Source: a virus. From it: a DNA stretch of 64,000 bases. The position numbers and the translations under genes are program-made. Where the stretch lies: positions 32,001 to 96,000 of the IMG/VR virus record IMGVR_UViG_3300048592_001371, one strand, 5' to 3'. Shown here piece after piece: positions 12,301-30,605 of the stretch (its first letter is position 1; each line of letters begins with the position of its first letter). The notes beneath the pieces are model-generated. The model saw only the letters and a program-made list of their open reading frames with translations. It was not told the DNA's origin and did not search any database.

Positions 12301-12308
12301 GTGGCTAT

Positions 12309-12626
12309 ATGTCCATTCAATATACGGGTCCCGGTGTAGCACTTGGGGTAGCACCAGTCACGGTCTACGCGTGCCCGATGACAATCAAGGCAGGAAACAT
12401 TGCTGGCGGTTTGATTGCCAACAATGATTCCGTGTTCCACAGAACGATCCTCGTCTCCGGTATGATTACGGGACGCAATCTTTCAGTCTTTACGGAAGTA
12501 GAAGTGCCTTACGGTTCCTCGCTTCCTTTGCCGGTCATGACGTTAAACCCAGGAGAAGAATTGCGTATGTGGGCTAACATTAGCGGCGTGGTCAACGTCA
12601 CACTATCAGTTGGGGAGCAGAAATGA
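12309..12626 (+). CDS. Hypothetical structural protein
   Basis: 105-aa beta-rich ORF in operon. Confidence 0.6.
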   Translation: MSIQYTGPGVALGVAPVTVYACPMTIKAGNIAGGLIANNDSVFHRTILVSGMITGRNLSVFTEVEVPYGSSLPLPVMTLNPGEELRMWANISGVVNVTLSVGEQK

Positions 12627-13060: not shown

Positions 13061-13107
13061 TAGACCCGCCAATTTCGTGAACTAGTCACTTACTCTAGGA
13101 GAGAAAC

Positions 13108-13758
13108 ATGGGAATTCGTGCCATCATCAACAAGAAAACCGGGCGTCTGGTTTCGACCATAGCCGGGGACAGAACGTATGAAGCTTCTGCGGTTCTGGAA
13201 AGCAACCCGGATTTGCGCGTTCGCTACTTGAACGTCAAGCTCCCGACAGGTTACCGCCACGTCGACGCCTCGCGTTACAAGATCAATGCTCGAGGCGTGG
13301 TGTTCAAGTCGGCAGTGACTGCTGACGAAATCGTCGGCCTCCGTGTGGATGCGGCCAAGATTCGCGCTACAGCTCTGATCCGCACATTGGTCGAACTGAA
13401 ACGTCGGCCTCTGACCAAGAACTACACGCTGCAGGGTCAAACCTACCGCGAGAAAGCGTTGCAAGCCAAGGCCCTGAAAGACGCGCTTGTTGCCAATCCG
13501 GGAATGTCAGACACACAAGTCGAGGCCGTGGCACCTATGGTTCTCGACTACGCACGTCTGAAGGGCATTTCCAATTCGGCGGCCGCTGACGACATCTGTC
13601 TGAAGTGGGACGCGGTTCTGGCTACCGCGCGTACGACGGAGAACCAGCGCCAGACCTTCAACGAGCGCATCAAAACGGCGACTACAGAAGAAGAAGCTCT
13701 GGCTATCGAGCAAGAACTGCGCGACCTGATCACTGCCGCAACGCAGCCGGCCGCGTAA
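13108..13758 (+). CDS. Tail-fibre-assembly-like protein (paralogue 1)
   Basis: Motif Q..TY.EK...A...PM...A..KG.S...A..I...TE..R...I..A.T is shared with 20976, 25557, 27166 and 37227; strong RBS. Confidence 0.65.
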   Translation: MGIRAIINKKTGRLVSTIAGDRTYEASAVLESNPDLRVRYLNVKLPTGYRHVDASRYKINARGVVFKSAVTADEIVGLRVDAAKIRATALIRTLVELKRRPLTKNYTLQGQTYREKALQAKALKDALVANPGMSDTQVEAVAPMVLDYARLKGISNSAAADDICLKWDAVLATARTTENQRQTFNERIKTATTEEEALAIEQELRDLITAATQPAA

Positions 13759-13772
13759 TTCGTAGTACAACA

Positions 13773-13803
13773 AACGGGGTGGCTTTCCACCCCGTTACCT
13801 TTA
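13773..13803 (+). terminator. Intrinsic terminator-like hairpin
   Basis: Perfect 10-bp stem AACGGGGTGG-cttt-CCACCCCGTT followed by a short T-rich tract. Confidence 0.65.
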
Positions 13804-13814
13804 TTGGTACAGAA

Positions 13815-14543
13815 ATGTTGAGACTGTCCGAAATCTACAAACCTGTGTTCTCGGCAGATGATGTGAGACTGGTATCGGAAACATTCTGCCACTCACTCGC
13901 TCCCGGATACGCAGACATTATCGGCCGACTATCCAAAGGCCTGCAAGTCCGCTCTGCCTCTGATGCAGACCTTGACATGCTCAAGTATCTACGCGGACTT
14001 AACGTCCTCTCGTATGAGGACACTGCTCTCTCCAGCGAGAACCCACTCATGTACTGGCGCCTATTGGGTTACAGTACAGAGTACGTCCAGAAGCAAATCA
14101 AACACAATACAATTCGGGTACTAGGAGGGGACAACCCAGACATCGATGCCTTCTCAGAACAACTGGCCGCTCTGGGATGGACAATATGCGATGACAGTCG
14201 AGTACGGGTGATTCTGCTGAACAGCCAGGCTCAGATAGATGAAGCACTGTCGTTCTACGGTCTGCGTATGGCGACTATCCCAATAGTGCTAGATCGATTT
14301 CGCGCCTCAATTGGGCCGTTGTACTACCCCGGTTTGCTCGAATGGCCGAATCTGAGCAAACAAGCGGAAGCCTCTCCGGTCTACTTGAAAGAAGGGGCCG
14401 GACTGATTCCAGCGTACAAGTCGATTCAGCTAAGACTGGTTGCCTTGTACGTTGCAAGAATTCTGATGTGCCTTGAGGACATTGCGAGCTGTTTCCTAGA
14501 GCTCGATCTGACGACCATGCGAGTGAAGGAGCGACATGTCTGA
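13815..14543 (+). CDS. TOMM-type leader-peptide-binding / degenerate E1(ThiF)-like protein
   Basis: Motifs VRLVSE, YWRLLG...QKQI...IRVLG, SIGPLYYPG and C-terminal FLELDLTTMRVKERH parallel TOMM cyclodehydratase C-proteins. The usual Zn CxxC after GP...PG is missing. Confidence 0.55.
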   Translation: MLRLSEIYKPVFSADDVRLVSETFCHSLAPGYADIIGRLSKGLQVRSASDADLDMLKYLRGLNVLSYEDTALSSENPLMYWRLLGYSTEYVQKQIKHNTIRVLGGDNPDIDAFSEQLAALGWTICDDSRVRVILLNSQAQIDEALSFYGLRMATIPIVLDRFRASIGPLYYPGLLEWPNLSKQAEASPVYLKEGAGLIPAYKSIQLRLVALYVARILMCLEDIASCFLELDLTTMRVKERHV

Positions 14544-15450
14544 GATCACGAATTTCGACTTGTTCGTAGGGTACAATCAAAGGCCATGGACATTCTCTAC
14601 GAATCCTTCCGACAAGTTCATGGTCTGGTCGAAGCGCCTGAAGCGCAAAATCTTCCCCTTCCGAGACGAGCTAGCACAAGCGGCGCAAGAATTATCAGTA
14701 CGCGGACTAGGTCCCTTCTACGTTCTGTATTCTGGTGGCTACGACAGCGAAGCAATCCTAGCAGCCTTTCTGGAGAACGGTCTGCCTGTTGTCCCGATCA
14801 TGGTGCGATATACCGATGAGAGCAACTCGGAAGACTTTGAACACGGGCTAAACTACTTAGCCCACTACGAGATGTCTCCGATCATCTACGAGATAGATCT
14901 GGCGAAGTGGATACACTCACAGGAGTGTCGTGACCTAGCAGAGAAGGTGCAAGCCGGTGATCTAGCAACGACAGCCATCTACAAGGCTGTGCTAGATATG
15001 CCGCAACTGCGCGAAGGCTTCTTTATCATGGGTTTGCACGAACCAGCCATCTACGCCCAGGACACCGAAGAGAAGCGTGAATGGGTACTGCTGGAAGAGG
15101 AGAAGTGGTACGCACATCACAAATTCCTACTGGCCCACAATCTACGTGGGATAGGTGCCTTCATACACTACAGCCCGGAGCTTTACACGTCCTTCGTGGT
15201 CAATCCAGCGTACATGCGTGTGTATGCGAACATGTTCAATCCTGAGCTGTGGCAAGCCGAGTGGGTGAAGCATCAGTTGTTCTCAAAGTATCTGCGCTTG
15301 GAGCGTAGAGAAAAACGGACAGGGTTCGAAGCGATTCAAGGTGAGGTCAATCGTATCAACCACGAATGGATACGAGAGCACGAAGGATTGTGGGATAGGC
15401 ACTACGTGACGCCTGTCCTAGATTGGGTACGTGGAGTAGGCCACCTATGA
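14536..15450 (+). CDS. PP-loop ATP pyrophosphatase (adenine nucleotide alpha-hydrolase superfamily)
   Basis: VLYSGGYDSE PP-loop and C-terminal KRTGFE. Confidence 0.75.
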   Translation: MSEITNFDLFVGYNQRPWTFSTNPSDKFMVWSKRLKRKIFPFRDELAQAAQELSVRGLGPFYVLYSGGYDSEAILAAFLENGLPVVPIMVRYTDESNSEDFEHGLNYLAHYEMSPIIYEIDLAKWIHSQECRDLAEKVQAGDLATTAIYKAVLDMPQLREGFFIMGLHEPAIYAQDTEEKREWVLLEEEKWYAHHKFLLAHNLRGIGAFIHYSPELYTSFVVNPAYMRVYANMFNPELWQAEWVKHQLFSKYLRLERREKRTGFEAIQGEVNRINHEWIREHEGLWDRHYVTPVLDWVRGVGHL

Positions 15451-15905
15451 ATATAGTCAAGATCACAAACGACAAAGACGTGATGCGTCTCATGCTGGAG
15501 GAAAAGCGACCTCTGCAACAGGTCTTTGGCGTAGAGAACGTCATGCGCGGCTACACTGACGAGCAAAGCGGCTACTTCGGCGTCTACAAAGAGCTCTGTT
15601 TGTCTAGTGCCTATCAGTGCTCGGCTTGGTCTGATGTCCTGTTCGTACATGACATCGTTGGAGCAATTCAGGATGTCTGGTTGCACATACGAAACGGACG
15701 CAACTTTGTAGCATACGTCCGAAAGGGTAACATGCCGAGCCTGGGGGAGCTAGAAGGTCTGTTTGGCCTTCCCGTCTTCGCCAACAGCACACGGAATTTG
15801 GACTACGCAATGCTCCATTCTCTGTTCAACTACGTTCTTCCTCAAGAGAACGGTTACGTTATAGCGAGCCAAAAATGGGACATTCCATTGATGATAAGCC
15901 TGTAA
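15447..15905 (+). CDS. Hypothetical protein
   Basis: ATGA overlap with the upstream gene; 152 aa. Confidence 0.6.
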   Translation: MNIVKITNDKDVMRLMLEEKRPLQQVFGVENVMRGYTDEQSGYFGVYKELCLSSAYQCSAWSDVLFVHDIVGAIQDVWLHIRNGRNFVAYVRKGNMPSLGELEGLFGLPVFANSTRNLDYAMLHSLFNYVLPQENGYVIASQKWDIPLMISL

Positions 15906-16762
15906 TCATTTGCTCCTTCCCGAGGAGCGGCAGTACGTTGCTTCAACGATTGCTGAACACACATGACGATCTATGCATCTGGGGAGAGAACCTCGGTCTT
16001 CTGACAGCTATGCTAGACCAGATTGCAGCCTTGCGCTGGACGGGAACAGATCCCAAGACAGCGGCCCAAGTCAAACAATCTTCCGAATTTTCTCCGGTCA
16101 GCACTCCCTACACGGCTTTCGATCTGCAAGAAGCGTTCAAGAAACTCCTCGTCGGCTTTTACGCTAGAGGGTTGAAAGAGAATATACGCTGGGGCTACAA
16201 AGACCACAATCACTACTACCCATTCGATCTAATTGAGATCAACAAGATATTCCCCGGGGCTCAGTTCATCGTATTGAGAAGGAACGGTCCAGACTGTTGC
16301 ACGAAAGCTATATTGGCGCCTTGGGTGCGCGAGAAGATAGAAGGCACTCCGAGCCTGTTAGGAGTAGACGTGCGTGCCAGTATGGACAGCTTGGTCTCTT
16401 CCGTCATTCTCACCTATCTGCAATTCAACACCTTCGCTTCGAACGTCTACAAAAACAGAACAGACGTGAGGGTGATTGAGTACGAGGATCTGGTGCGAAG
16501 TCCTGAGCATGTGATCGAGCACTTGTCGCAATTCTTGAATCTACGGCAGGACGGCTGGAATATTGAAGCCTTCGAGACACAGCTATCAACGAAGCTGGGG
16601 AAAACGCCCAGTCAGGGAAGCTATGGCTTCATGACAGAAGAGTTGGTACGGGAGTACGTGGACAAGTGGTGGAGGAAACTGGTAGTAGAGGGCAACGTCG
16701 AACGGCGAGAGCGTGATCTTCGTTGGAACGTTGTGACGGGTAGACACTGGCGCTGGTACTGA
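15875..16762 (+). CDS. Sulfotransferase family protein
   Basis: ICSFPRSGSTLLQRLLNTH...GE, RWGYK, FPGAQFIVLRRN and IEYEDLV motifs. Confidence 0.85.
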   Translation: MGHSIDDKPVIICSFPRSGSTLLQRLLNTHDDLCIWGENLGLLTAMLDQIAALRWTGTDPKTAAQVKQSSEFSPVSTPYTAFDLQEAFKKLLVGFYARGLKENIRWGYKDHNHYYPFDLIEINKIFPGAQFIVLRRNGPDCCTKAILAPWVREKIEGTPSLLGVDVRASMDSLVSSVILTYLQFNTFASNVYKNRTDVRVIEYEDLVRSPEHVIEHLSQFLNLRQDGWNIEAFETQLSTKLGKTPSQGSYGFMTEELVREYVDKWWRKLVVEGNVERRERDLRWNVVTGRHWRWY

Positions 16763-16769
16763 GGAAATC

Positions 16770-17189
16770 ATGACTTCTGTTCGTGTATCGCAAGAGAAAC
16801 TGAAAACAGGCTCGCTGGACGTGGCGGAACTGGTTCTGGAAACCCAGCTCGATCTAGCGCGTAGAAACATTACCGCTGCGTACTTCCCAATACGAGAGGA
16901 ACTGGACGAGACATTAGTTCTGCGCGCCATGAACGGAGAACTGGCGGCTGTTCTCGTTTGGCGAAAGTATGTCGACTCTATCTGGATCATCATAGCAGCC
17001 GTGAAGGATGGCTTCCGAGGGCAAGGACTGCATCAACTGCTGCATCAAGAACTGGACAAGGTAGCGCGCCAACTTGGCATCGGCGTCATTGAGACGTATG
17101 TCGGGACAGAGAACAAATCAGTGCTGCGGTCCTACGAAAAGATGGGTATTACGCCACAGATGTACTACATCAAGAAAAAGGTGCCGTAA
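16770..17189 (+). CDS. GNAT acetyltransferase 1
   Basis: AVKDGFRGQGLH acetyl-CoA motif and ENKSVLRSYEKMG. Confidence 0.85.
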   Translation: MTSVRVSQEKLKTGSLDVAELVLETQLDLARRNITAAYFPIREELDETLVLRAMNGELAAVLVWRKYVDSIWIIIAAVKDGFRGQGLHQLLHQELDKVARQLGIGVIETYVGTENKSVLRSYEKMGITPQMYYIKKKVP

Positions 17190-18655
17190 TGCTGTTGGAG
17201 AACGTCGATCTGTTGCTCATTTCGGATTGCTACGAAACTCCGTATGTAAGGTATAGCGGCCCCTACGTCCTCGCTTCCTACCTTCGCAGGCATGGTCTGA
17301 GAGTGCAGGTAGTAGACTACTTTTCCCGCTTCACAGATACCGAGATAGAAACCATAGTAGACGTGTGCGTTGGCTCCAATACCAAGGCGGTAGGAGTATC
17401 GGATACATTCTCCGGCAAGCCCTTGCATGAGCTCGCAGATGGATCGACCTATGGTTGGCCCTTCTTCGAGAGGCATGACAGGATACGTCGCTTCATCGGC
17501 AATGTCAAGCGCAAGAATCCGAAAACGCGACTGTTGATGGGTGGGCAAAAGACCACTCAAGGACTAAGCGCCGGGTACATAGACACATACTTCCATGGGT
17601 TCGCCGAACAGTCACTTCTCGCTTATCTACAAAGCGAAGGACATGAAGTTCCACGTGTCGTCAAAGAAGCCACCATCCCGAATTGGAAAGACATCCCAAC
17701 CATTCATCACGAGTCCGACAACATCCTCGAAGGAGAAACGCTGCCGTTAGAAGTGTCTCGTGGCTGTATCTTCAACTGCAAATTCTGCTCATACCCCCGT
17801 CGAAATGCCAAGGACTTGAACTACATAAAGTCGGAGGAAGCTATCTACCAGCAGCTTCTGCACAACTATGAGCAATATGGCACTACCTGTTACACGCTAC
17901 TGGACGATACGCACAACGATTCGAAAGCCAAACTCGAAACCATTCGGAACGTTCTAGATCGTCTGCCGTTCAGCATCGAATTTGCTACCTATCTGCGGCT
18001 CGATCTGATAGCCAAAGATATGTCCACCGCGGAGTTGCTCATACGAAATGGACTACGTGGAGCCTTCTTCGGAATAGAGACACTACACAAGGAAGCGGGA
18101 CGACTCGTTGGAAAAGGCCTAGAGCCTGACGAAACGAGAAAGGCGCTGCGAAAATTACGGGAGTTGTGGGGAAACGAAGTAGGAACGCAAGGTGCTTTCA
18201 TCCTAGGCTTGCCGAAACAGCCAGAAGCTGATGTGATACTGATGTGCGAAGAGGTCTGCGACCCTTCCTTCCCGTTACATGGCCCAATATTCTTTCCGTT
18301 GATCATGTATCCAGGCAGGACAAATCCCTCACCGTTCGAGAAAAATCCGTCCCTATACGGGATACGCTTGGAGGAAGGGGATCGGCACGGGTATTGGCAT
18401 AATAGTGAAACCGGCATGGACTTCGAACGCGCGATAGAGATTCAAAACGAATACACGACGCGCATCTACCGCAATCACAGACGCCAATGTGGAGGTTTCT
18501 TGCCCATCATGGCAGTTAATCTAGGTATCAAAGCGCGGGACTTAATCGGCATGCCCGCGAGGGTCGCTCATAAGAAGTACAATATGCAGTCGAGGGAGTC
18601 TCCCTATTTGGCAAAGTACAAAGCAAAGGTTCTGGGAACAACGGAGGGGCAATGA
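17189..18655 (+). CDS. B12-binding (class B-like) radical SAM enzyme 1
   Basis: N-terminal GPYVLASYLR..G..V.VVD, SRGCIFNCKFC cluster motif, FFGIETL and FILGLP. Confidence 0.9.
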   Translation: MLLENVDLLLISDCYETPYVRYSGPYVLASYLRRHGLRVQVVDYFSRFTDTEIETIVDVCVGSNTKAVGVSDTFSGKPLHELADGSTYGWPFFERHDRIRRFIGNVKRKNPKTRLLMGGQKTTQGLSAGYIDTYFHGFAEQSLLAYLQSEGHEVPRVVKEATIPNWKDIPTIHHESDNILEGETLPLEVSRGCIFNCKFCSYPRRNAKDLNYIKSEEAIYQQLLHNYEQYGTTCYTLLDDTHNDSKAKLETIRNVLDRLPFSIEFATYLRLDLIAKDMSTAELLIRNGLRGAFFGIETLHKEAGRLVGKGLEPDETRKALRKLRELWGNEVGTQGAFILGLPKQPEADVILMCEEVCDPSFPLHGPIFFPLIMYPGRTNPSPFEKNPSLYGIRLEEGDRHGYWHNSETGMDFERAIEIQNEYTTRIYRNHRRQCGGFLPIMAVNLGIKARDLIGMPARVAHKKYNMQSRESPYLAKYKAKVLGTTEGQ

Positions 18656-19074
18656 AGGTAACATTCAGGACGGAGAAGGTATTTGAGTTGAACAACGAGG
18701 TCATAAAATTCATACTGTTGTCCTATGTCGAACTCCTGGATAGAAGTTTGTCCGGTATGGGAATTCCCTTCGCGAATACCGACGACGTTCTCATGGCTAC
18801 GAACGAAAAAGGGGACTTGACCGGCTGTATTGTGCTGAGGAAAACGAACGACGCCATCCCTACCTACTGGGTGATCCTAACGGCTGTGAAGCAAGAGTTC
18901 CGTGGTAAGGGACTGCATAAGCAAATGCACAGTCGCCTAGATGCGATTGCTCGGGCCAACGGCATCCAGTACATCTCATCCTACGTCTCTCCGAACAACA
19001 AGGAAAGCTTGAGGGCGTATGAGAAATTCGGCGCAGAACAGTCTATGATAAAGATCAACCGGAAGGTCTCGTAA
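18652..19074 (+). CDS. GNAT acetyltransferase 2
   Basis: AVKQEFRGKGLH and NNKESLRAYEKFG. Confidence 0.85.
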   Translation: MKVTFRTEKVFELNNEVIKFILLSYVELLDRSLSGMGIPFANTDDVLMATNEKGDLTGCIVLRKTNDAIPTYWVILTAVKQEFRGKGLHKQMHSRLDAIARANGIQYISSYVSPNNKESLRAYEKFGAEQSMIKINRKVS

Positions 19075-20540
19075 TGCTGTTAGAGAACGTCGACTTGCTA
19101 ATCGTTAGCGATTTCGCCAATCCCATCTACAAGTCACGCTACAGCGGTCCATACGTTCTCGCCTCCTACCTTCGCAGATTGGGTCTGCGCGTTCAGATAG
19201 TTGATTACATCTCCGAATTCTCGGACGAACAACTGCGGGATATCGTAGACGTTTGTGTCGGGAAGAATACCAAGGCCGTTGGCATTTCTGACACCTTCAG
19301 TTACTTCCAGACACACATGAACGCCAATCGAGTGAATGAGTTCACGATAGCGGGTTGGCCTTTCCTACGAGAGGAGCGGATCAAGGCCTTTGTCGCTAGA
19401 ATCAAGGGTATCAACCCCGATACGCAGATCATCATGGGTGGTGCTAAGTCGACGCGCTTCGATCAACCCGTTCCCTACGTAGACGTTCTATTCAGAGGAT
19501 TTTCCGAAGCGTCCCTAGCAAAGTATCTGATGTCCCGTCACCTGGGTTTGAACAGTTCGTCCTTCGTCGAGGAGCTTCCGATAGATGATTGGATAGACAC
19601 GGTCACTCATATGAGTCCGGAAGACAACCCCTTGGTCAACGAAACCGTTCCTTTGGAAATCTCCCGCGGATGCATATTCAACTGTAAATACTGTTCATAC
19701 CCACGTAAGGGAGCGAAGGACTTCGATTACATCAAGACGGAGGAATCGCTCTACCAAACGCTCTTTACGAACTACTCGGAGTTCGGCATTCGTCGCTACA
19801 TGCTGACGGATGATACGCACAACGATTCGATGTTCAAGCTTGAGCGCTTGCATCGCGTCACTCAACGGCTTCCCTTCAAGATCGAGTATAGCTCGTACAT
19901 CCGAGTCGACTTGCTTCACCGCTATCCTGAGATGATAGACCTGTTGAAAGAGATAGGTCTGAAAGGAGCGATGATGGGGATAGAAACCTTGAATTGGGAA
20001 ACGGGCAAGATAATCGGCAAAGGATTGCAGCCTAAGAAAACGATTGAAACGCTCCAGCTCTTACGTGAGAAGTGGGGCGACACGATCGGTACCCAAGGTA
20101 TGTTCATTCTTGGTTTGCCGCGCCAATCATACAAGGATGCTATCGCGATGTGTGAACGCATAAGCGCAGAAGACTTCCCATTGCATGAGGCACTATTCTT
20201 CCCTCTGTATTTCTTGACCCAGGCTCGCGTCAAGTCGGCTTTCGATATGGACTACGAAAGTTTCGGGTACAAGGTAGAGGGAAAAACGTGGGTCAACGAT
20301 CAAGGGATGACGTCCGAACAGGCAACAAAGCTGGCTAGGTATTACACGAACAAGAACAGAAAGAGCGGGCGTGAGAAGTTCGGTGGCAATCTGCCATTAC
20401 AGCTAGCCAATAGCGGATATGTCGTCGACGACTTGATAGGGAAACCGTTGGGCTCGTTTTTCGAGTCTGAGGAAGCAAAGGGACGCACTACTGAATATGT
20501 GCGTCGATACAAACGAAAACTTTTTGACGTAGAGGAATGA
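19074..20540 (+). CDS. B12-binding radical SAM enzyme 2
   Basis: SRGCIFNCKYC; paralogue of 17189. Confidence 0.9.
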   Translation: MLLENVDLLIVSDFANPIYKSRYSGPYVLASYLRRLGLRVQIVDYISEFSDEQLRDIVDVCVGKNTKAVGISDTFSYFQTHMNANRVNEFTIAGWPFLREERIKAFVARIKGINPDTQIIMGGAKSTRFDQPVPYVDVLFRGFSEASLAKYLMSRHLGLNSSSFVEELPIDDWIDTVTHMSPEDNPLVNETVPLEISRGCIFNCKYCSYPRKGAKDFDYIKTEESLYQTLFTNYSEFGIRRYMLTDDTHNDSMFKLERLHRVTQRLPFKIEYSSYIRVDLLHRYPEMIDLLKEIGLKGAMMGIETLNWETGKIIGKGLQPKKTIETLQLLREKWGDTIGTQGMFILGLPRQSYKDAIAMCERISAEDFPLHEALFFPLYFLTQARVKSAFDMDYESFGYKVEGKTWVNDQGMTSEQATKLARYYTNKNRKSGREKFGGNLPLQLANSGYVVDDLIGKPLGSFFESEEAKGRTTEYVRRYKRKLFDVEE

Positions 20541-20541
20541 C

Positions 20542-20976
20542 ATGGAACTAAAAATCCATAGTATTTCCATCATGCGCGTGTCAAACGATGTGCTGTCATT
20601 CATCCTTCGTACAATGGCCGATTTGGTAGAGGACGGACACTCGGGAAGAGGAATCGCTGTTACCAATGCGGACCACGTAGTCGTAGCAAGGCGTTCTGAC
20701 AATGGCGAACTCGTAGGAGTGCTTGTCTACGTAATAAATAGGCCGAAGGATTTGCTGTGGGTAAATCACGCCGCCGTCAAAGAGCAATATCGCGGACAGG
20801 GGATACATCGAAAGATGCATGCGATGCTCAAAGACATCGCCCGAAAGGAGAATGTCTACGAAGTTGGTTCCTACGTCTCTATTGAAAACAGGGCGAGTGT
20901 AGGGGCGCACAGCAAACGACCCGGCGTCAAGTTCCCAATGATGCGAGTATCCGTGCCCGTTACAGAGGACAAGTAA
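20542..20976 (+). CDS. GNAT acetyltransferase 3
   Basis: AVKEQYRGQGIH and ENRAS. Confidence 0.85.
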   Translation: MELKIHSISIMRVSNDVLSFILRTMADLVEDGHSGRGIAVTNADHVVVARRSDNGELVGVLVYVINRPKDLLWVNHAAVKEQYRGQGIHRKMHAMLKDIARKENVYEVGSYVSIENRASVGAHSKRPGVKFPMMRVSVPVTEDK

Positions 20977-24078: not shown

Positions 24079-24942
24079 ATGTATTGGAACAGGTTGTTTG
24101 ACGACGTGGTTGACTTCACCCAGCATCGGTATTACTCACAGTTCGAGAATCTGAAATCCACGAACCCGCAGAATTTTCGCTGCGACCCACTAGCCCCGAG
24201 TCCTGTTCTTTTCTTGGGTTCCTGTGACATGGGTGGTCCTGTCAATAACGCAGACGAAGTGTGGCCGCGACGCGTGTATAGAAAACTATGTGAGTCGCAG
24301 GGGCGGTTCCCGTACATGGCTTTGTCCAAGATCAGCTCTGGACTAGAAGCCACGTTGCGTCGACTGTACATCTACTGCGAACTCGTAGGTCCGCCGAAAG
24401 TGCTCTATATGGTCATGCCTCGGCCAGTAAGCATTGAAATTCCTGTGAAGCGGTCGATGACAGATCCTCTCGTTGGAGTAACGGACATAGAGCGATACTT
24501 GACGTTCCTCGGCAAACTCCCAACAATCACAACCGAAGAGGTGTTCCTCTTCAAGAAGATTTCTGAGGTACTGATCGGTTTGTCTGAGAATGAGTCGTAC
24601 CAACTGTACCAGTTTGAAAAAGGGACCGCCTTCTTGCAGACGCTCTGTCGTTTGCACAATATCGAGTTACGCTGGACGCCCAATCTTAGTGCCACTGCCA
24701 TAGAGTACTACGCCAAATACTTTTCTCTGTTCCTGAGGGAGAATGATTTCATGCGGCAGACGTGTCTGGGTGTTGGCAAGGCTCTGGATTTCTCAGGCGA
24801 CGGATCTGTGGGCGACGAGACACAGGGCGTTATCGCTAATCTGATGCTGGATGGCAAACCCGGTGAATTTTCTCTAGACGCAACAAAGAAGCAGCTGGTC
24901 GAGAACTTGGAATTCAAACGCACAACCCTGGAGGAAAAATGA
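24079..24942 (+). CDS. Hypothetical protein, possibly a degenerate SGNH-hydrolase-like fold
   Basis: VLFLGSCDMGG...VWP...ALSKISSG...P.VLY.VMP resembles SGNH blocks I-III. Confidence 0.45.
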   Translation: MYWNRLFDDVVDFTQHRYYSQFENLKSTNPQNFRCDPLAPSPVLFLGSCDMGGPVNNADEVWPRRVYRKLCESQGRFPYMALSKISSGLEATLRRLYIYCELVGPPKVLYMVMPRPVSIEIPVKRSMTDPLVGVTDIERYLTFLGKLPTITTEEVFLFKKISEVLIGLSENESYQLYQFEKGTAFLQTLCRLHNIELRWTPNLSATAIEYYAKYFSLFLRENDFMRQTCLGVGKALDFSGDGSVGDETQGVIANLMLDGKPGEFSLDATKKQLVENLEFKRTTLEEK

Positions 24943-25547
24943 TACCACTACACGTAGCAAATCTCAATACACGGGACTATGTCCATGGCACGTCTATCAT
25001 GACAGGGCTGACGCGCTTCCTACTAGAAAATCACGATACCGTAACGGAATTCACCTTCCGTCTGTACAAGAAGCTCCTGACTTTGCCGCTACTGAGCATT
25101 ACCGAGAAACAGGTCGACAATCCAAAGGACTACGTCGCTACGGGTTCCTTCATGGGAAACGGCTCGCAATGGTTCTTCCAAATTCAGCCTTCAGTCCTTC
25201 CCGTGGAGCACGTTCTGCACATTGACGAGTCCGCTCTAGTAAATAGGATAGAACTGAGAGGAGACAGGTACGTCATAGACGTTGAAGAAAAAGACGACGT
25301 CTTTGTCACCTGGAATGCCATATCAAAGACGCACAACCTGAGAGTGTTCAGCGAGCTCGGCGTGACAAAGCCGGGTGGCCAGACATGGCTAACAGGACAA
25401 ACATTCAAAGACTTGTCCTTCTTGAGAACTCGGCCTGCGACATTGGGAAATTCGGTCGCGTTTCAGAGACTGTCCGAGCGCTGTATCAAACATGACATGT
25501 ACTACGACGAGGCAATAGTCGGAGACAAGACTATAGTCTATGCCTAA
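24939..25547 (+). CDS. Hypothetical protein (RDYVHGT motif)
   Basis: GGAGG RBS and ATGA overlap; function unknown. Confidence 0.6.
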   Translation: MIPLHVANLNTRDYVHGTSIMTGLTRFLLENHDTVTEFTFRLYKKLLTLPLLSITEKQVDNPKDYVATGSFMGNGSQWFFQIQPSVLPVEHVLHIDESALVNRIELRGDRYVIDVEEKDDVFVTWNAISKTHNLRVFSELGVTKPGGQTWLTGQTFKDLSFLRTRPATLGNSVAFQRLSERCIKHDMYYDEAIVGDKTIVYA

Positions 25548-25556
25548 GGGGACATA

Positions 25557-26165
25557 ATGCTGCAACTTGCTATCGATGTGACGGATGGTACGGTCATATA
25601 TGCCTTACCGGATGCGTACCGAATCTGCATGCCCAAATTGCGGACATGGATAGAAAACATCATACTCGATGTTCGGCTTCCCAAGGATTTCCCGATACGC
25701 GCATTAGGTTCACAGAATTTTGTCCGTATAGGGCTGGAAATTCAACGACGGGTGGATAGCGTCCCGGAAGCAGCTATGCTTCTGAATCTGAAATACCACT
25801 CCGTGGACAAAGTGAACATGCTGGTTAATGGACATCGCTTTGCAACGATGAACAAGTTGCTGTTGCAACCACGAGTGTACGAGCTAAAAATAGCGGAGGC
25901 TGAAGCCGTATTGAAGTCGGGCTCCAGTTTGGAGCCCGTAGAAAACGCGCCTATGCTGATAGAGGAAGCAAAAGCGCGGGGCCTATCTGTACGAGATGTT
26001 GCCAAGACTGTTCTACTGGCCAGAGACGATCAGGACGACATGCTGAAAAGGACGGAAGGTATGCGAATATCCGCCACTATTCGCATCTCCGAGGCAAAAA
26101 CACCGCAAGAGGTTTTCGAGATAATGTCGGGCTTCGAGGAAAGTTTCCACAACCGAGGCCTATGA
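25557..26165 (+). CDS. Tail-fibre-assembly-like protein (paralogue 3)
   Basis: QPRVYELKIAEA...PMLIEEAKARGLSV...AKTV...TEGMR. Confidence 0.65.
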   Translation: MLQLAIDVTDGTVIYALPDAYRICMPKLRTWIENIILDVRLPKDFPIRALGSQNFVRIGLEIQRRVDSVPEAAMLLNLKYHSVDKVNMLVNGHRFATMNKLLLQPRVYELKIAEAEAVLKSGSSLEPVENAPMLIEEAKARGLSVRDVAKTVLLARDDQDDMLKRTEGMRISATIRISEAKTPQEVFEIMSGFEESFHNRGL

Positions 26166-27169
26166 TGAGACCGTTGATCTACATAGGTACTCCTAGATAT
26201 CGAAACAGGGTTTTGCGTACTCTGTACCAAGTTCTGCATATCGACGTACCGATGTCTCGTTGTGCTTATCAGGAGTGCAACGTCGTCCCAGTCAGTCATG
26301 CTTTCCCTTTGATGTCCGAACATCGAATAGCGCCGTGTGCCCAGCCGCTTTATGAATTAGAACGCTTGGTCCTAGACAGGGCGACACAGCTTGTGTCGGA
26401 ATCGTCTCAGACGGGAAGGCCCATTTGCGTTAAATACTCCGGTGGTCTGGATAGTATGTTGGCACTCCTGGCCTTCGAACGAATTTCCGCAGAATACAAA
26501 GTCTTCCTGACGCCCAACTCCATCAAAGAAAATCCCACCGTCTTCAAAAAGTTCATTGCCCATCGTGAGTATTTTCACGCGAACGACCCTTCTGTCTTTG
26601 ACGGGCTCGTGATAACAGGAGACGGAGGGGATGCTCTATTTCTAGACGCTATCGTTAAAGGGCCGCAGATGAGGCATGGCGATGCGGTATTGGACTGGGA
26701 CTGGAAAGACGGTTTCGTGAAGGGTATGTGGGGCACGCCAGAAGAGAACAAGTTTGTCTTGGGACTACTAGAGCCGGCGATGCACGATTGTCCCTGGCCA
26801 GTGAAGACGGTTCGGGACTTCTTCGCTTGGACTGGCCTAGCGATCTTCTACCAACCGGAAGTATTGCGTTGGCTTCCTACACTACAGGATCCAAAGAAGA
26901 ACTGGCCTTGGGTCCGGCCGTTCTTTGCAACGAAGGAATTCGTGGAGTGGTCTCTTGGGCAAGAGCCGAAAATCAAGTATCCAAGTACGTCTGACTACAA
27001 ACCAACATTCCGAAAACTGTGTGAGAAATTTTCGGGACTGGATCTATCGGACATGAGGAAAGACTTCTCGCTAGGTAAGACGAGGGGTGCTGCTCCTATG
27101 GTGGTAGGCGTGATGGAAGACTTGACACACGTCACCACCGAAGGAATCGAAAAACTGGTAAAGGAATGA
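26162..27169 (+). CDS. Asparagine-synthetase-like PP-loop ligase
   Basis: VKYSGGLDS and GDGGDALF motifs. Confidence 0.8.
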   Translation: MMRPLIYIGTPRYRNRVLRTLYQVLHIDVPMSRCAYQECNVVPVSHAFPLMSEHRIAPCAQPLYELERLVLDRATQLVSESSQTGRPICVKYSGGLDSMLALLAFERISAEYKVFLTPNSIKENPTVFKKFIAHREYFHANDPSVFDGLVITGDGGDALFLDAIVKGPQMRHGDAVLDWDWKDGFVKGMWGTPEENKFVLGLLEPAMHDCPWPVKTVRDFFAWTGLAIFYQPEVLRWLPTLQDPKKNWPWVRPFFATKEFVEWSLGQEPKIKYPSTSDYKPTFRKLCEKFSGLDLSDMRKDFSLGKTRGAAPMVVGVMEDLTHVTTEGIEKLVKE

Positions 27170-27801
27170 ATATGGGCGCTCCGAATCTCTATCAACTCGC
27201 GGTTGATACACACGACAATACCATCATCTATGCGATGCCGGAAAGTTATCGGTTGTCCCTGCCAGATTTGAGAACCTGGGTGGAGAACAAACTGTTCTAC
27301 GGAAGCTTGCCTGAAGGCTTTCCAATACGCAATCTGGATAGTCAAAAGTTTGTGCTATCTGAGGGAAAGGTCCTAGCACGGAAGGACGAGGTTCGGGAAG
27401 GTGTCGCTTTGCTGAACGTGAAGTATTGGGCGATCGATCAGGTTCTAATGATCATCAACGGACAACGCTTCGCGGTAACAAACAAGCTGTTGATGCAGGA
27501 TAGGATATACGAGGCAAAGGTCGAGGAAGCGCGTCTGATTCTGGCAAGACAAGACGAGGAGCTCAGGAAGTCACACTTTGAGACATCTTGTCCTATGCTG
27601 TATGCTGAGTCCGAGGACAAAGGACTGAGTCTAAACGTCGTAGCAAAAACAGTGATGGTAGCATACGAAGAACAAATGTCTCGCTTGAAGAAAACGGAGA
27701 TCATGCGAATGGCGATAACGAACAAAATCGCCAATGCCGAGACAGAGGAACAAGTTCGGGCTCTGTTGAAGGACGTCAAACTCTATTTCTACACGAGATG
27801 A
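27166..27801 (+). CDS. Tail-fibre-assembly-like protein (paralogue 4)
   Basis: Close paralogue of 25557 (NG.RFA..NKLL.Q.R.YE.K..EA). Confidence 0.65.
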   Translation: MNMGAPNLYQLAVDTHDNTIIYAMPESYRLSLPDLRTWVENKLFYGSLPEGFPIRNLDSQKFVLSEGKVLARKDEVREGVALLNVKYWAIDQVLMIINGQRFAVTNKLLMQDRIYEAKVEEARLILARQDEELRKSHFETSCPMLYAESEDKGLSLNVVAKTVMVAYEEQMSRLKKTEIMRMAITNKIANAETEEQVRALLKDVKLYFYTR

Positions 27802-28805
27802 AACTCCTCAGCTACCACAACAATCCGATGTTCAAGAACAGGACGTTGAATACATTCTTCAACGTGCTCAACGTCGAGGCACCTATGTCTAGGTGTTCTT
27901 ACCAAGGATGCAATGTCCTACCTGTTCATCACTTGTTGCCTCCAATGTCGGAGTATGCAATACGTGTCGTTTCGCAGCCGGGTGCCGAGCTGGAGACGAT
28001 AGTCGAAGCAAGGGTGCGCGAGCTGGTCAACGAAGCACGCCAATTTGATCTGCCAATTCACCTCAAGTACTCTGGTGGTTTGGACAGCCTGCTCGTGCTG
28101 CTCATGTTACATAGGTGTGACGCGGATTTCGTTGTCTATCTGACTCCCGATTCCATCAAAGAGAACCAAGACGTATTCAAGAGATATGTCTCGAACCGAG
28201 ATTTCAAACACGTCAATTGTCCTAGTCTGTTCGACGGACTGATAATTTCAGGAGACGGGGCCGATGCTCTGTTCATAGACATGCTGGCAACAAGCGTAGT
28301 TTCCAAACACGGAGAGACGTCCTTGGATTGGAAATGGGAAGAAGGCTTTGTGAAAGGCATGTACGGAACGGAACAAGAGAACAACGAAGTGCTCGAATTG
28401 CTCTTTCCCGCTCTCGACGAATGTCCTTGGGAGGTAGAGACAGTTCGGGACTTCTTCGCTTGGACTGGCCTAGCGATCTTCTACCAGCACGAGACGTATC
28501 GTTGGCTTCCGACCATGCCTAATCCGGCAGAGAATTTCGCGCGCTTCCGACCGTTCTTTCCAACGAAGGATTTCGTCGAATGGTCTTTGGGACAGGAAAC
28601 GAAGGCCAAGTTTCCGAGCTTCACCGATTACAAACCGGCATTTAGGAAGCTGTGCGAAAAGCTAACGGGTCTTGACTTTTCCTACATGCGGAAAGACTTT
28701 TCGCTGTGGAAGACCGTAGCAGGTAATCGTCTGCATCCCGGTGTCAAAGATGATCTCTCGATTGCAACTATCGAAGAAATAGAACAGGCCGCTATCTATC
28801 CATGA
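27798..28805 (+). CDS. Asparagine-synthetase-like PP-loop ligase
   Basis: LKYSGGLDS and GDGADALF; tandem paralogue of 26162 with the same 335-aa length. Confidence 0.8.
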   Translation: MKLLSYHNNPMFKNRTLNTFFNVLNVEAPMSRCSYQGCNVLPVHHLLPPMSEYAIRVVSQPGAELETIVEARVRELVNEARQFDLPIHLKYSGGLDSLLVLLMLHRCDADFVVYLTPDSIKENQDVFKRYVSNRDFKHVNCPSLFDGLIISGDGADALFIDMLATSVVSKHGETSLDWKWEEGFVKGMYGTEQENNEVLELLFPALDECPWEVETVRDFFAWTGLAIFYQHETYRWLPTMPNPAENFARFRPFFPTKDFVEWSLGQETKAKFPSFTDYKPAFRKLCEKLTGLDFSYMRKDFSLWKTVAGNRLHPGVKDDLSIATIEEIEQAAIYP

Positions 28806-29908
28806 CCGCAAATCTTCTCGATATGTACAAGCCCTTCGTCGAGGACTATCAAGGACCGTGTCTTGTCATCGACCGGGCCTCGATTTTCGAGCGCATAAAA
28901 CGCTTCCTTCGCGCGGTGCCGAACGTCCTCCCGTATTATGCAATGAAGGCGAACCCGCATCCCGGTGTTCTACAGACGGTTTCGGACGCGGGTATAAACT
29001 TTGACGTTGCCTCGGCAGACGAGATTCTCTTGCTGGAGCGTACTGGTCTGAACGTGCGTCATGTGCTGTTCAGCAATCCTGTCAAGAAACCAAGCGACAT
29101 CGCTTACGCAGCTTGGAATGGCATTCAGAACTATGCAATAGATAGCCAAGAGGAAATGTTCAAGATACTGTCTATCGTGCCGCACGCCAAGATGTACGTT
29201 CGTTTGTCTTTGCCACCCAGCACCGCGGATTCCCCACTCAATGACAAATTCGGTATTGACTTGTATGAGCTAGAAGGCCTGCTCCGGATAGCTAAAACGG
29301 TCAAGGCGGACATCTGTGGAGTAACATTCCACGTTGGCTCTCAATGTCGCTATCTCGACAGTTGGGGAGACGCTATAGGAATTGCTCTCAAAGCCGGCGA
29401 GATGCTTCTGCGCGAAGGCTTTCGGTTCGAGTTGCTCAACCTGGGTGGCGGCTTTCCCGTTTCCTACACGCGTCCAATACCTGAGATCGAAGACATTGGT
29501 CTGGTGCTGGATAGGCTGTTGCAAGATCTGCCGAAAGAAACACGAGTGGTTGCCGAGCCGGGACGACACCTGGTTGCGGAATCAGGCATGCTGATCTGCC
29601 AAGTAATAGCAACCTCTACGAGGAAGGGTACTCGTTGGGCCTACTTGGATGTCGGTACATACAACGGATTGGTAGAAACGATCCAAGGCGTTGAGTGTAA
29701 TTTCTGCTATACGCAAGAAGGCGACACGGATCTTTGGAATGTAGCGGGTCCAACGTGTGATTCAAACGACATCATGTCTAAGAGGGTCCGTCTACCCCGG
29801 AATCTGGCAACTGGAGATTTTCTCTATGTGCCGAATGCCGGGGCCTATTCGGTAGCCAGTGCAAGTACATTCTGCGGAGCACACATTCCGGAGGTTATCC
29901 TATTGTGA
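28802..29908 (+). CDS. Type III PLP-dependent ornithine/lysine decarboxylase
   Basis: YAMKAN (PLP lysine), FDVAS, DKFG, FHVGSQ, LNLGGGF, AEPGR, GPTCDSND and GAY motifs. Confidence 0.92.
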   Translation: MTANLLDMYKPFVEDYQGPCLVIDRASIFERIKRFLRAVPNVLPYYAMKANPHPGVLQTVSDAGINFDVASADEILLLERTGLNVRHVLFSNPVKKPSDIAYAAWNGIQNYAIDSQEEMFKILSIVPHAKMYVRLSLPPSTADSPLNDKFGIDLYELEGLLRIAKTVKADICGVTFHVGSQCRYLDSWGDAIGIALKAGEMLLREGFRFELLNLGGGFPVSYTRPIPEIEDIGLVLDRLLQDLPKETRVVAEPGRHLVAESGMLICQVIATSTRKGTRWAYLDVGTYNGLVETIQGVECNFCYTQEGDTDLWNVAGPTCDSNDIMSKRVRLPRNLATGDFLYVPNAGAYSVASASTFCGAHIPEVILL

Positions 29909-30429
29909 ATCATGGACGCGTACTGTGGCTGACAGGTTTGAGTGGGTCGGGCAAGACCACTCTGGCTTGGGCACTTGACGAATTCCTACAACGCAAAGGA
30001 ATTGCTACTTCTGTCATCGACGGAGACGAGATACGCAAAACCCTGTGTAAGGATCTGGGGTATACGGCGGAGGACAGAACAGAGAACCAGCGGCGCATCG
30101 CAGGACTGGCGAGAAAACAAGCCGATCTCGACCTCACAGTAATCGTGGCCACCATCAGCCCGAGATTCAAACATCGGGTACTGGCCGAAGAGATAATCCA
30201 CCCGATCGACTTCTACGAAATCTACCTAGCCACTCCCCTCGAAGAATGCGAGAGGCGCGATCCGAAAGGGATGTACGCCAAAGCCAGAAGAGGGGAGATC
30301 AGTGCCTTCACCGGAGTTACCGATCCGTATGAGGAACCCGAACACCCCGATGTGAAAATCCCTCCGTCTTTCTCCCTCCGAGAAGCACTTCAAGCAATCG
30401 AACGGTCTGTCCGTTTCACGATTCTCTAG
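29905..30429 (+). CDS. cysC: Adenylyl-sulfate (APS) kinase
   Basis: LWLTGLSGSGKTT, DGDEIR..L..DLGY...DR.EN..R, RDPKGMY.KA..GEI..FTG..DPYE.P. Confidence 0.95.
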   Translation: MNHGRVLWLTGLSGSGKTTLAWALDEFLQRKGIATSVIDGDEIRKTLCKDLGYTAEDRTENQRRIAGLARKQADLDLTVIVATISPRFKHRVLAEEIIHPIDFYEIYLATPLEECERRDPKGMYAKARRGEISAFTGVTDPYEEPEHPDVKIPPSFSLREALQAIERSVRFTIL

Positions 30430-30566: not shown

Positions 30567-30605
30567 CTGTAGAGCAAAATCCCATTTTTGGTAGAAAGGA
30601 CCGAT

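Follow-up and report, generated by a model that had tools for sequence, protein, structure and literature searches.

The window analysed here is a 64,000-nucleotide stretch of DNA from an uncultured giant phage, the sequence of which occurs in sludge and sediment metagenomes. The record to which it belongs is only ~50% complete, and no ACP was found in it. Between positions 13108 and 30429 (~17 kb), 21 co-directional open reading frames lie on the + strand, adjacent ones being separated by -31 to +9 bases, with the sole exception of 56 bases between g01 and g02. This block is a real, tightly packed operon; an earlier note had described it in the same way but with 22 genes. The genes are intact in strains across four studies, where length changes are 3-base insertions or deletions or, in g13, paired +1/-1 changes; two single-base length changes fall outside genes. 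As the note had stated, tail and lysis genes flank the operon: tail-fibre PHROGs are found 5′ of it, and an Rz-like i-spanin and a lipobox-bearing o-spanin 3′ of it. The features of the operon are as follows.

g01, 13108..13758, + strand: helper protein of family famA, 216 aa; member of alignment A2; weak paralogy to g16 and g18
g02, 13815..14543, + strand: 242 aa, putative E1-like or TOMM leader-binding-like fold; overlaps g03 by 8 bases
g03, 14536..15450, + strand: PP-loop ATPase of a second family (PP3), with SGGYDS
g04, 15423..15905, + strand: 160 aa, no family match
g05, 15875..16762, + strand: PAPS-dependent sulfotransferase; Sulfotransfer_3, 3.4e-21
g06, 16770..17189, + strand: GNAT; Acetyltransf_1, 4.6e-7, 30.6 bits against a cut-off of 20.7
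g07, 17189..18655, + strand: radical SAM enzyme of class-B-like architecture; Radical_SAM, 8.8e-13
g08, 18652..19074, + strand: GNAT; Acetyltransf_1, 7.2e-11; EctA-like, 9e-7, sub-threshold
g09, 19074..20540, + strand: radical SAM paralogue; Radical_SAM, 6.1e-16; 47-48% identity to g07 and g13
g10, 20542..20976, + strand: GNAT; Acetyltransf_1, 3.7e-9
g11, 20976..21602, + strand: famA helper, paralogous to g18; phrog_21671 (unknown function), 2.7e-7
g12, 21599..22621, + strand: glutaminase-less AsnB-class PP-loop ligase; 27-28% identity to g17 and g19; in alignment A1
g13, 22606..24078, + strand: radical SAM paralogue; Radical_SAM, 1.7e-13
g14, 24079..24942, + strand: 287 aa, conserved FLGSCD block
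g15, 24939..25547, + strand: 202 aa
g16, 25557..26165, + strand: famA helper; 43% identity with g18; phrog_21671, 1.8e-4
g17, 26162..27169, + strand: AsnB-class PP-loop ligase; AF2 model, pLDDT 91.8
g18, 27166..27801, + strand: famA helper; AF2 model, pLDDT 90.8
g19, 27798..28805, + strand: AsnB-class PP-loop ligase; 56% identity with g17
g20, 28802..29908, + strand: fold-III PLP decarboxylase of the ornithine/lysine-decarboxylase type; Orn_Arg_deC_N, 1.5e-49
g21, 29905..30429, + strand: adenylyl-sulfate (APS) kinase; TIGR00455
30501..30531 (approx.), + strand: terminator-like hairpin at the operon end; fold -22.7 kcal/mol, z -2.85

The closing terminator proposed earlier corresponds to this stable hairpin with CUUUCU directly 3′ of it, but the consensus scanner made no call. 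Another stable hairpin (13773-13796; -20.9 kcal/mol, z -3.24) follows g01. Clear membrane segments were found in none of the 21 proteins.

Enzyme and helper families

Four PP-loop ligases had been noted in the operon. SGGxDS is indeed present in g03, g12, g17 and g19, but only three of the four are AsnB-class ligases. The motif is invariant across alignment A1, and the g17 model matched 12 AsnB-class entries over 190-260 residues with Z scores of 11.1-13.4, whereas other PP-loop families reached at most 6.4. A search of 1.84 billion representatives gave 271 relatives of g17 at E≤1e-3. The Pfam family Asn_synthase does not match g17 and weakly matches just 3 of 60 relatives. The ligases share their PP-loop and a TGE.GDQLFG-type second motif with class-II asparagine synthetases and enzymes derived from them, namely with the C-terminal synthetase domain of AsnB, human ASNS, beta-lactam synthetase, carbapenam synthetase and TsnB9; lasso-peptide cyclases also fall in this group. 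Unlike these enzymes, the phage ligases (335 aa) have no N-terminal glutaminase domain and are coupled to a phage-specific helper protein. From the two motifs and the AsnB-class fold, the expected chemistry is adenylation of a carboxylate with subsequent formation of an amide. The remaining PP-loop protein, g03, belongs elsewhere: its profile (A6) matched NH3-dependent NAD synthetase in the PDB at 1.9e-7 and also TtuA, MnmA, TilS and QueC, and hhalign of its family against the AsnB-like family gave 96.5% over 99 columns. Of 77 radical SAM loci, 26 contain a g03 homologue.

The partners of these enzymes, g01, g11, g16 and g18, are a phage-specific helper family of ~210 aa each, so that four helper genes are paired with four PP-loop genes. 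A PP-loop gene lies directly 3′ of g11, g16 and g18, with overlapping stops and starts, while g02 intervenes after g01. The AF2 model of g18 consists of a beta N-domain and a helical bundle and is compact and folded, without a free tail; its matches are limited to uncharacterised phage proteins. These four proteins had been labelled as tail-fibre-assembly-like, for which no Pfam, PHROG-function or solved-fold support was found, and a role as fibre chaperones is not demonstrable on these grounds. The family bears a faint resemblance to DUF4376.

The three radical SAM paralogues (488-490 aa, 45-48% identical) had been described as B12-binding. The enzyme class stands, with CxxxCxxC invariant in alignment A4, but B12 binding found little backing: the Pfam B12-binding domain matched one of the three (g13) at 16.5 bits against a threshold of 32.1, and the B12 radical SAM families of NCBIfam gave sub-threshold matches only, the PhpK family being the top NCBIfam match of g07 (67.5 bits, sub-threshold). 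The family has 236 confirmed relatives in viral contigs, against 10 in a set of 185,579 species represented by one genome each. The three predicted GNATs (g06, g08 and g10) all exceed the Acetyltransf_1 cut-off, and their top sub-threshold matches are to diaminobutyrate acetyltransferase (EctA-type).

Three further assignments were borne out. The sulfotransferase g05 scores 77 bits against a Sulfotransfer_3 cut-off of 27, and its nearest solved structure, a weak match, is protein-tyrosine sulfotransferase 1 (E 0.002). The APS kinase g21 scores 186 bits against the TIGR00455 cut-off of 138.7. For g20, the nearest solved relative is ornithine decarboxylase (2.2e-52), followed by Lys/Orn decarboxylase (2.4e-48) and the arginine decarboxylase of PBCV-1 (2e-37); no NCBIfam equivalog was above cut-off.

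The TOMM/E1-like identity proposed for g02 is a lead only. Its whole-protein look-alikes in the Atlas (features 0.93; TM by query 0.69-0.78) fall in TOMM leader-binding and ThiF-like clusters, so that structure and language model point the same way, but sequence profiles do not: no homologue was found in Pfam, NCBIfam, PHROG, PDB sequences or a 5.8-billion database, and phmmer found a single one (L158) in 157 related loci. As for the smaller genes, g04 is unrelated to the c35 family that lies 3′ of PP3 in other phages. No PDB relative of g14 was found; in 5 of 77 loci its homologues lie beside genes for PP3 and radical SAM enzymes, and the one homologue of g15 adjoins a g14 homologue in L100.

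Related islands in other phages

The helper-ligase cassette and the radical SAM family are encountered again on hundreds of contigs from uncultured phages (IMG/VR loci), and the PP3, GNAT and g14 families are also found in many uncultured phages. The 80 related loci contain 102 ligase genes, of which 33 are directly preceded, on the same strand, by a gene for a helper homologue. The cassette is extended by a GNAT in L070 and L074 (GNAT-helper-ligase) and by a radical SAM gene in L016, L031 and L071, while PP3, g14 and g15 are grouped in L100 and L087. Among the 149 proteins neighbouring radical SAM homologues in 17 loci, there are 21 FA_desaturase, 11 Asp_Arg_Hydrox, 4 TauD and 4 SDR proteins, with ketoacyl synthase and P450 represented by one protein each. 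One neighbouring delta-9-type desaturase has membrane helices and three histidine boxes. SPASM radical SAM and Asp/Asn-hydroxylase-type genes are also encoded in related loci.

The operon shares with these islands the cassette, PP3, the radical SAM family, the GNAT and g14/g15. Whereas the other islands carry desaturases and Asp/Asn-hydroxylase-type and TauD oxygenases, it has none of these oxygen-dependent enzymes, and it adds three GNAT/radical SAM pairs, the sulfotransferase with its APS kinase, the decarboxylase and the E1-like protein. When the 157 related loci were searched with phmmer, GNAT and one g02 homologue were all that turned up of the four additions. The operon is best explained as an oxygen-independent form of a class of enzyme islands, widespread among giant phages but undescribed, whose core is a helper specific to phages coupled to an asparagine-synthetase-class ligase without a glutaminase domain. 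No published description of this class was found in the literature.

The related loci also bear on the substrate. From its position in the tail-fibre module, the earlier note had concluded that the enzymes decorate the phage's own fibres or adhesins and thereby alter host range, adhesion or resistance. The operon does lie directly 3′ of tail-fibre genes and 5′ of the spanins, and there are papers on virion protein modification (PMC13445384, PMC12014285). Yet 147 of the 157 related loci have no homologue of the window's fibre-like proteins (10 do), the 25 commonest PHROG families among 137 cassette neighbours include no tail-fibre family, lone ligase homologues are located between terminase subunits, and a chaperone function of the helpers for fibres is not demonstrable. 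Since the related loci are mostly unlinked to tail-fibre genes, which the note itself had named as refuting its proposal, the link looks incidental rather than functional, and fibre decoration is quite improbable. A virion target is weakened but keeps some probability, because two homologous PP-loop genes of the isolated Pseudomonas phage Cygsa01 stand immediately behind baseplate wedge genes and the genes of three hypothetical proteins.

The PHROG matches of the 137 cassette neighbours (within 6 genes, 22 loci) are mostly to nucleotide-metabolism and auxiliary genes, led by exonuclease, RNR, PhoH, dCMP deaminase and radical SAM. Such neighbours would suit a hypermodification pathway for DNA or tRNA bases, of the thymidine or 7-deazaguanine kind, in which the PP-loop enzymes, radical SAMs, GNATs, PLP decarboxylase and P-loop kinase work on the base. 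According to PMC8989533, the same classes (radical SAM, PLP decarboxylase, GNAT and P-loop kinase) are grouped in phages M6, ViI and PaMx11 and act on DNA there. The families matched by g03 (MnmA, TilS, TtuA, QueC) act on bases. The details speak against it: Thymidylat_synt (dUMP hydroxymethylase) homologues and TGT/DpdA matches are lacking in the ~50% complete record, and QueC does not exceed its cut-off there; TGT is found in none of five related contigs, one of them 93% complete; the operon's kinase is a genuine APS kinase with a sulfotransferase as its partner; and the three ligases are AsnB-class rather than of a base-modifying PP-loop class. The radical SAM type described in PMC8989533 is spore-photoproduct-lyase-like, whereas that of the operon is class-B-like. 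Base modification is very improbable.

Candidate acceptors

The reading tentatively favoured here is a helper-guided, ATP-dependent amide ligation on a carboxylate, followed by acetylation, radical methylation and sulfation, with a protein or peptide as the probable acceptor. The ligases would adenylate the carboxylate with ATP and join it to an amine, most likely a diamine produced by g20, the ornithine-decarboxylase-type enzyme of the operon. The GNATs would then acylate free amino groups, the three class-B-like radical SAMs may add methyl groups to unactivated carbons or alter them by other radical chemistry, and the sulfotransferase would add sulfate from PAPS, the last step of which would be supplied by the phage APS kinase. 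The carboxylate could belong to the helpers themselves or to another late phage protein, not specifically to tail fibres, and might be recognised via the E1-like or leader-binding-like g02, whose gene is coupled to that of the PP-loop enzyme g03.

Such an acceptor recalls RiPP pathways that have an E1-like leader-binding partner (the TOMM C-protein) and share the tailoring classes, with C-methyltransferases of the class-B radical SAM type, N-acetylation by GNATs and tyrosine sulfation. RaxST/RaxX is an example of the last. The RiPP-like flavour noted earlier gains some support from the TOMM- and ThiF-like look-alikes of g02 and the weak protein-tyrosine sulfotransferase match of g05; the hairpin after the first gene is a further shared feature, and the SPASM and Asp/Asn-hydroxylase-type genes of relatives point the same way. 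In contrast to RiPP pathways, the operon has no YcaO, precursor peptide, protease or exporter, and the ATP enzyme beside g02 is a PP-loop protein. The description of a tailoring cluster without scaffold enzyme, precursor peptide, transporter or glycosyltransferase holds. Several findings count against a protein or peptide: no precursor peptide gene fits the operon gaps, the helper is compact with no free tail, and g02 is a single source of evidence with no sequence support.

Nearly as likely, if itself doubtful, is a small-molecule or lipid-like product: the operon would make or alter either a free metabolite, such as a polyamine amide bearing acetyl, methyl and sulfate groups, or a component of the infected-cell envelope, the helpers being specificity or scaffolding subunits only. 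The solved AsnB-class relatives (asparagine, beta-lactam and carbapenam synthetases, TsnB9) act on small molecules, the GNATs match EctA-type small-amine acetyltransferases best, and both the amine and the final step towards PAPS are provided by the phage itself; the first two points also weigh against a protein acceptor. As related islands are rich in membrane delta-9-type desaturases (among them the one with three histidine boxes) and SDRs, with one ketoacyl synthase and one P450, besides Asp_Arg_Hydrox and TauD, lipid-like substrates are indicated, which likewise counts against a protein or peptide. However, the record contains no desaturase, PP-binding carrier or Asp/Arg hydroxylase over cut-off, the operon encodes no scaffold synthase or transporter, all of its proteins are soluble, and g02 resembles a peptide-binding partner.

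Genome context and operon layout

The window covers bases 32001-96000 of a single record of 123,553 bases that is classed as 'provirus' and has a completeness estimate of ~50%. The operon's proteins are also carried by a contig of 207,582 bases. The features referred to below are as follows.

13108-30429, + strand: the operon, with its ORFs numbered g01 to g21
13773-13796: a hairpin between the stop of g01 and g02
30588-31261: a spanin pair
33398-35074: a 558-aa protein (phrog_23460)

The 558-aa protein shares ~27-33% identity with the annotated topoisomerase IB of the phages NCTB, Motura, phiRSL1 and PaBG, whose genomes measure 220-258 kb, and on this sequence similarity it places the phage near their giant-phage group. 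As the same proteins are found on the 207,582-base contig and the topoisomerase-like kin belong to phages of 220-258 kb, the virus is a giant myovirus-type phage. No close cultured relative was found by megablast of the cluster, or by tblastn of g12, g09 and g18, in 50,697 GenBank phage records. Comparison with Achromobacter phage Motura, a distant cultured relative, revealed a divergence too great to tell whether the operon is an insertion. A 403-aa protein of Motura (record 91499-92707) is annotated as 'acyl-carrier-protein'.

An earlier note, based on the sequence alone, described the operon as a co-directional run of 22 genes that is flanked by tail and lysis genes and closed by a terminator. 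The co-directional run is as described, although 21 ORFs were found in it. The flanks were confirmed by tail-fibre PHROG matches upstream and the spanin pair downstream. The run is closed by a hairpin (-22.7 kcal/mol) with U-rich sequence behind it; the consensus scanner did not call this hairpin. Gene junctions range from -31 to +9 bases, the one exception being a 56-base gap after g01. Since no intergenic gap is longer than this, a precursor gene does not fit between the operon genes, in keeping with the note's statement that there is no precursor peptide. The hairpin between g01 and g02 is GC-rich, has a 10-bp stem (-20.9 kcal/mol, z -3.24) and a U-rich tail, and may serve as a terminator or an attenuator, setting g01 apart from the enzyme genes downstream. 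The G+C content over 14001-30000 is 0.495-0.510, slightly under that of most flanking bins (0.525-0.560; one upstream bin has 0.486). In the spanin pair, a 137-aa Rz-like protein, matched to i-spanin in PHROGs and with an N-terminal membrane helix, is followed by an 87-aa o-spanin that has a lipobox (LSLTAC) and whose start lies 4 bases ahead of the i-spanin stop.

Helper proteins and AsnB-class ligases

Four paralogues, g01, g11, g16 and g18, each stand ahead of a PP-loop gene (with g02 between g01 and g03) and are here called helpers. They had been taken for tail-fibre-assembly-like proteins, a doubtful label. None has a Pfam match, and the sole PHROG match is phrog_21671, of unknown function. 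The likeness to DUF4376 is faint: in the Atlas, DUF4376 has a TM score of 0.42 and Caudo_TAP one of 0.29, and in BFVD DUF4376 appears at E 1.8e-3 with a TM of 0.33, while an annotated fibre-assembly protein ranks 48th at E 0.42. The top BFVD matches of g18 are uncharacterised phage proteins, including those of Prochlorococcus phage P-HM2 and cyanophage S-RIM14. With uncharacterised phage proteins matching best and the DUF4376 and fibre-assembly matches so faint, these proteins are regarded as a helper family of their own rather than as fibre chaperones. In the g18 model (pLDDT 90.8) a small beta domain precedes a helical bundle; the model found no Foldseek match in the PDB at E ≤ 1e-3, the best Z of the wide VIA search was 7.0, to generic helical bundles, and g18 matched only itself in a search of 5.8 billion proteins. 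In an alignment of the four helpers with 31 proteins from related loci, the last residue is L, I, V or F in 24 of the 35. A C-terminal motif resembling E-x-x-x-(Y/N)-x-x-(L/I) is frequent; among the window's four it is seen in g16 alone.

The count of four PP-loop proteins holds, as SGGxDS occurs in four: g12, g17 and g19 form one family and g03 belongs to a second (PP3). Across 60 sequences of the first family, the PP-loop residues S93, G94, G95, D97 and S98 are invariant. The AlphaFold model of g17 (pLDDT 91.8) matched 12 AsnB-class entries at Z 11.1-13.4, whereas all other PP-loop families reached at most 6.4, and its top Foldseek match was 1ct9 (3.2e-4). The model aligns solely to the C-terminal halves of AsnB-class enzymes of 470-580 aa; the N-terminal Ntn glutaminase domain is absent from g12, g17 and g19, which have 335-340 aa. 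Pfam Asn_synthase (PF00733) does not match these three at E ≤ 0.01 and gives weak matches in only three of the 60 family members, the best being 9e-4. ATP-dependent carboxylate adenylation with amide formation can be assigned to the three AsnB-class ligases with some confidence. The profile of PP3 matches NAD synthetase, TtuA, MnmA, TilS and QueC over the nucleotide-binding part only. Prediction of a g17-g16 complex gave 0.48, 0.00 and 0.00 in three runs, and is used neither for nor against a pairing of the two proteins.

Related loci and the fibre-decoration claim

Among 1.84 billion representative proteins, 271 match the ligase family at E ≤ 1e-3, and in IMG/VR no fewer than 253 places were confirmed for it; a scan of viral contigs with g17 alone as query gave no match. 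In the 80 loci kept, where genes were called by greedy ORF picks, there are 102 ligase genes. A helper homologue lies immediately upstream on the same strand for 33 of the 102; upstream there is another ligase for nine, and for 57 some other gene of that strand. The ligase genes can be multiplied, with five in a row in one locus (L030, 6422-12407) and four in another (L042, 5689-12146). Many lone ones (L041, L072, L040 and others) lie between small and large terminase genes in T4-like structural blocks, and a homing-endonuclease-like gene is often adjacent.

The radical SAM family of the operon is mainly viral, with 236 confirmed relatives in viral contigs versus 10 across 185,579 species (one genome each), and several of these 10 seem to be phage contigs within MAGs. 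Its 77 loci contain PP3 in 26, an AsnB-like ligase in 26, a GNAT in eight, g14 in five, and g15 and g02 in one each. A recurrent order was found in the relatives: PP3, an uncharacterised protein of ~205 aa, a membrane desaturase, variable enzymes, helper, ligase and cupin. The variable enzymes are of the Asp/Asn-hydroxylase type, radical SAM-SPASM proteins, GNATs or enzymes of the window's radical SAM type. Giant phages carry a conserved, virus-restricted enzyme system with a helper and a glutaminase-less AsnB-class ligase as its core. No paper on this class of helper-ligase island was found in a literature search that covered texts outside supplementary files. Phage auxiliary tailoring islands assembled from known enzyme families are, as a broader kind, already known.

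The neighbours were counted in two censuses, each of which reports the 25 commonest families, so that families with single-protein matches may lie outside it. The first compared with PHROGs 137 of the 186 eligible neighbours (120 aa or longer, no more than six genes from a helper-ligase cassette), in 22 of 26 cassette loci; it leaves out L022, L035, L071, L074, L075, L076, L077 and L080 as well as identified radical SAM and PP3 genes. Exonuclease led with six matches, ahead of a radical SAM family with five and a DNA-binding protein with three; RNR small subunit, PhoH, dCMP deaminase, pyrophosphohydrolase, NAD synthetase, endolysin and homing endonuclease had two each. Tail-fibre families do not appear among the 25 commonest of these 137 neighbours. 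The second census took 149 uncharacterised neighbours (170 aa or longer) in 17 of the 77 radical SAM loci, picked for holding several cluster families. It yielded FA_desaturase (21), Asp_Arg_Hydrox (11), further radical SAM proteins (7), TauD (4) and SDR (4); ketoacyl synthase and P450 were single proteins.

It had been proposed that the operon decorates the phage's own fibres, and that its relatives should lie next to tail genes. The proposal had position alone as its basis, and homologues of the window's fibre-like proteins were found in only 10 of 157 related loci, which means that the position in a fibre module is not conserved. The proposal is therefore improbable. Of the queries against the GenBank phage records, only a related ligase (from L034) gave a match, in the cultured Pseudomonas phage Cygsa01. 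There, two PP-loop genes, distant homologues of the phage PP-loop ligase families, do follow baseplate wedge genes (record 11421-13570), a point in favour of the proposal. Their annotation as 'tRNA-specific 2-thiouridylase MnmA' is probably a generic PP-loop call.

Proposed tailoring chemistry and possible acceptors

The radical SAM paralogues g07, g09 and g13 are 45-48% identical, and the three cysteines of CxxxCxxC (C200, C204 and C207) are invariant in their alignment. They were described as B12-binding. The radical SAM part is secure, with PF04055 over its cut-off in all three, but the B12-binding domain stays below threshold: PF02310 matched g13 only, at 16.5 bits (cut-off 32.1). The best NCBIfam matches are the B12 families PhpK, TIGR04072, HpnJ and BzaD, all far under their cut-offs, and cobalamin binding by the three proteins is plausible on these sequence matches. 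The three GNATs (g06, g08 and g10) are secure, and N-acylation together with radical modification of unactivated carbons is proposed with some confidence. The sulfotransferase g05 (Sulfotransfer_3) is equally secure and the APS kinase g21 passes the equivalog TIGR00455 (186 bits against 138.7), from which sulfation with a phage-boosted PAPS supply can be suggested with a similar degree of confidence. For g20, named as an ornithine decarboxylase, a fold-III PLP decarboxylase was confirmed (PF02784, 1.5e-49; PF00278, 2.1e-17) but not the substrate: no NCBIfam equivalog was over its cut-off, lysA scoring 170.6 against 297.9. Its nearest solved relatives are ODC (2.2e-52), then bacterial lysine/ornithine decarboxylases and a chlorovirus arginine decarboxylase. 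That the phage makes its own diamine through g20 is also held with some confidence. No family was assigned to g04, g14 and g15. The family that follows PP3 in other phages is related neither to g04 nor to GNATs, and HMMs of 27 neighbour families did not match g02, g04, g05, g14 or g15.

The protein g02 had been called a TOMM-type leader-binding or E1-like protein. Fold look-alikes agree with this, while membership by sequence profile was not obtained: g02 has no Pfam, NCBIfam or PHROG match, no match to PDB sequences at E ≤ 10, and found only itself among 5.8 billion proteins. In the ESM Atlas it resembles TOMM leader-binding and ThiF clusters (feature score 0.93; TM by query 0.69-0.78 over 225-241 residues), an assignment that comes from a single source and a predicted model and applies to the fold rather than to residues. 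No YcaO was found by Pfam in the 20 operon proteins scanned.

What the enzymes act on can be approached from several sides. A protein or peptide acceptor is the reading to which we tentatively lean. It is favoured by the fold look-alikes of g02, a weak match of g05 to tyrosine sulfotransferase, the one-to-one pairing of helpers and ligases, the hairpin 3' of g01, and the presence in relatives of SPASM and Asp/Asn-hydroxylase-type enzymes. A small or lipid-like product is only slightly less likely. The substrates of the solved AsnB-class relatives are small molecules, the GNATs have EctA-like matches, the building blocks are self-supplied and the relatives are rich in desaturases, all of which speak for such a product. 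Among lipid hallmarks, neither FA_desaturase nor a PP-binding (carrier) domain was found in the record, and Asp_Arg_Hydrox matches it in a single stretch only, at 13.6 bits and interrupted by three stops. The record is without any of the relatives' oxygen-dependent enzymes, and the operon is an oxygen-independent variant that adds sulfation, a polyamine supply and a candidate E1-like protein, g02.

A nucleic-acid target is less likely, since the hallmark genes are missing. For thymidine hypermodification there is no thymidylate-synthase homologue to serve as a dUMP hydroxymethylase (no PF00303 match in the 123.5-kb, ~50% complete record). A 7-deazaguanine modification with the PP-loop enzymes in the place of QueC was rejected because no TGT/DpdA occurs in the record or in five related contigs: PF01702 had no match in either at E ≤ 0.001 for the record, though a divergent DpdA could escape this profile. 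QueC itself scored 15.9 bits on g03, under its cut-off.

A more specific but improbable form of the protein-acceptor reading is that the helpers are dedicated carriers, loaded by the ligases with a diamine that is then tailored. Each cognate AsnB-class ligase would tether the diamine onto a helper carboxylate, and the GNATs, radical SAM enzymes and sulfotransferase would build a modified polyamine-like group on it. The g02/g03 pair would be a new E1-like and PP-loop pair for recognition and activation that replaces YcaO. PEARL or LysW carriers follow a comparable protein-templated logic. If this were true, a phage-specific protein-templated biosynthetic logic would be common to hundreds of giant phages, and aerobic tailoring sets (desaturase/oxygenase) could be exchanged for anaerobic ones (radical SAM/sulfation). 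The chemistry of the operon is unusually explicit, comprising diamine and PAPS supply, acetylation, radical methylation and sulfation, and together with the candidate leader-binding-like protein this makes it a good candidate for reconstitution. Once the acceptor is identified, several protein families that occur only in phages, with hundreds of members, would be given a function, and it would become clear whether infecting phages carry out chemistry of a protein-templated or RiPP-like kind.

Metagenomes with this record are of sludge-bioreactor, sediment and aquatic origin and come from four studies. No RNA data set is listed among them, and the one run labelled RNA-Seq, marked 'probably DNA', gave four short contigs and is accorded no weight as evidence of expression. 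Strains differ in length by 3-base insertions or deletions, by two paired +1/-1 changes in g13 and by two single-base changes outside genes. Both pairs occur in one aquatic-metagenome strain, inside 15 bases of g13 (window 23078-23092), and restore the frame; four of the remaining six differences are multiples of three, and the other two are the single-base ones.
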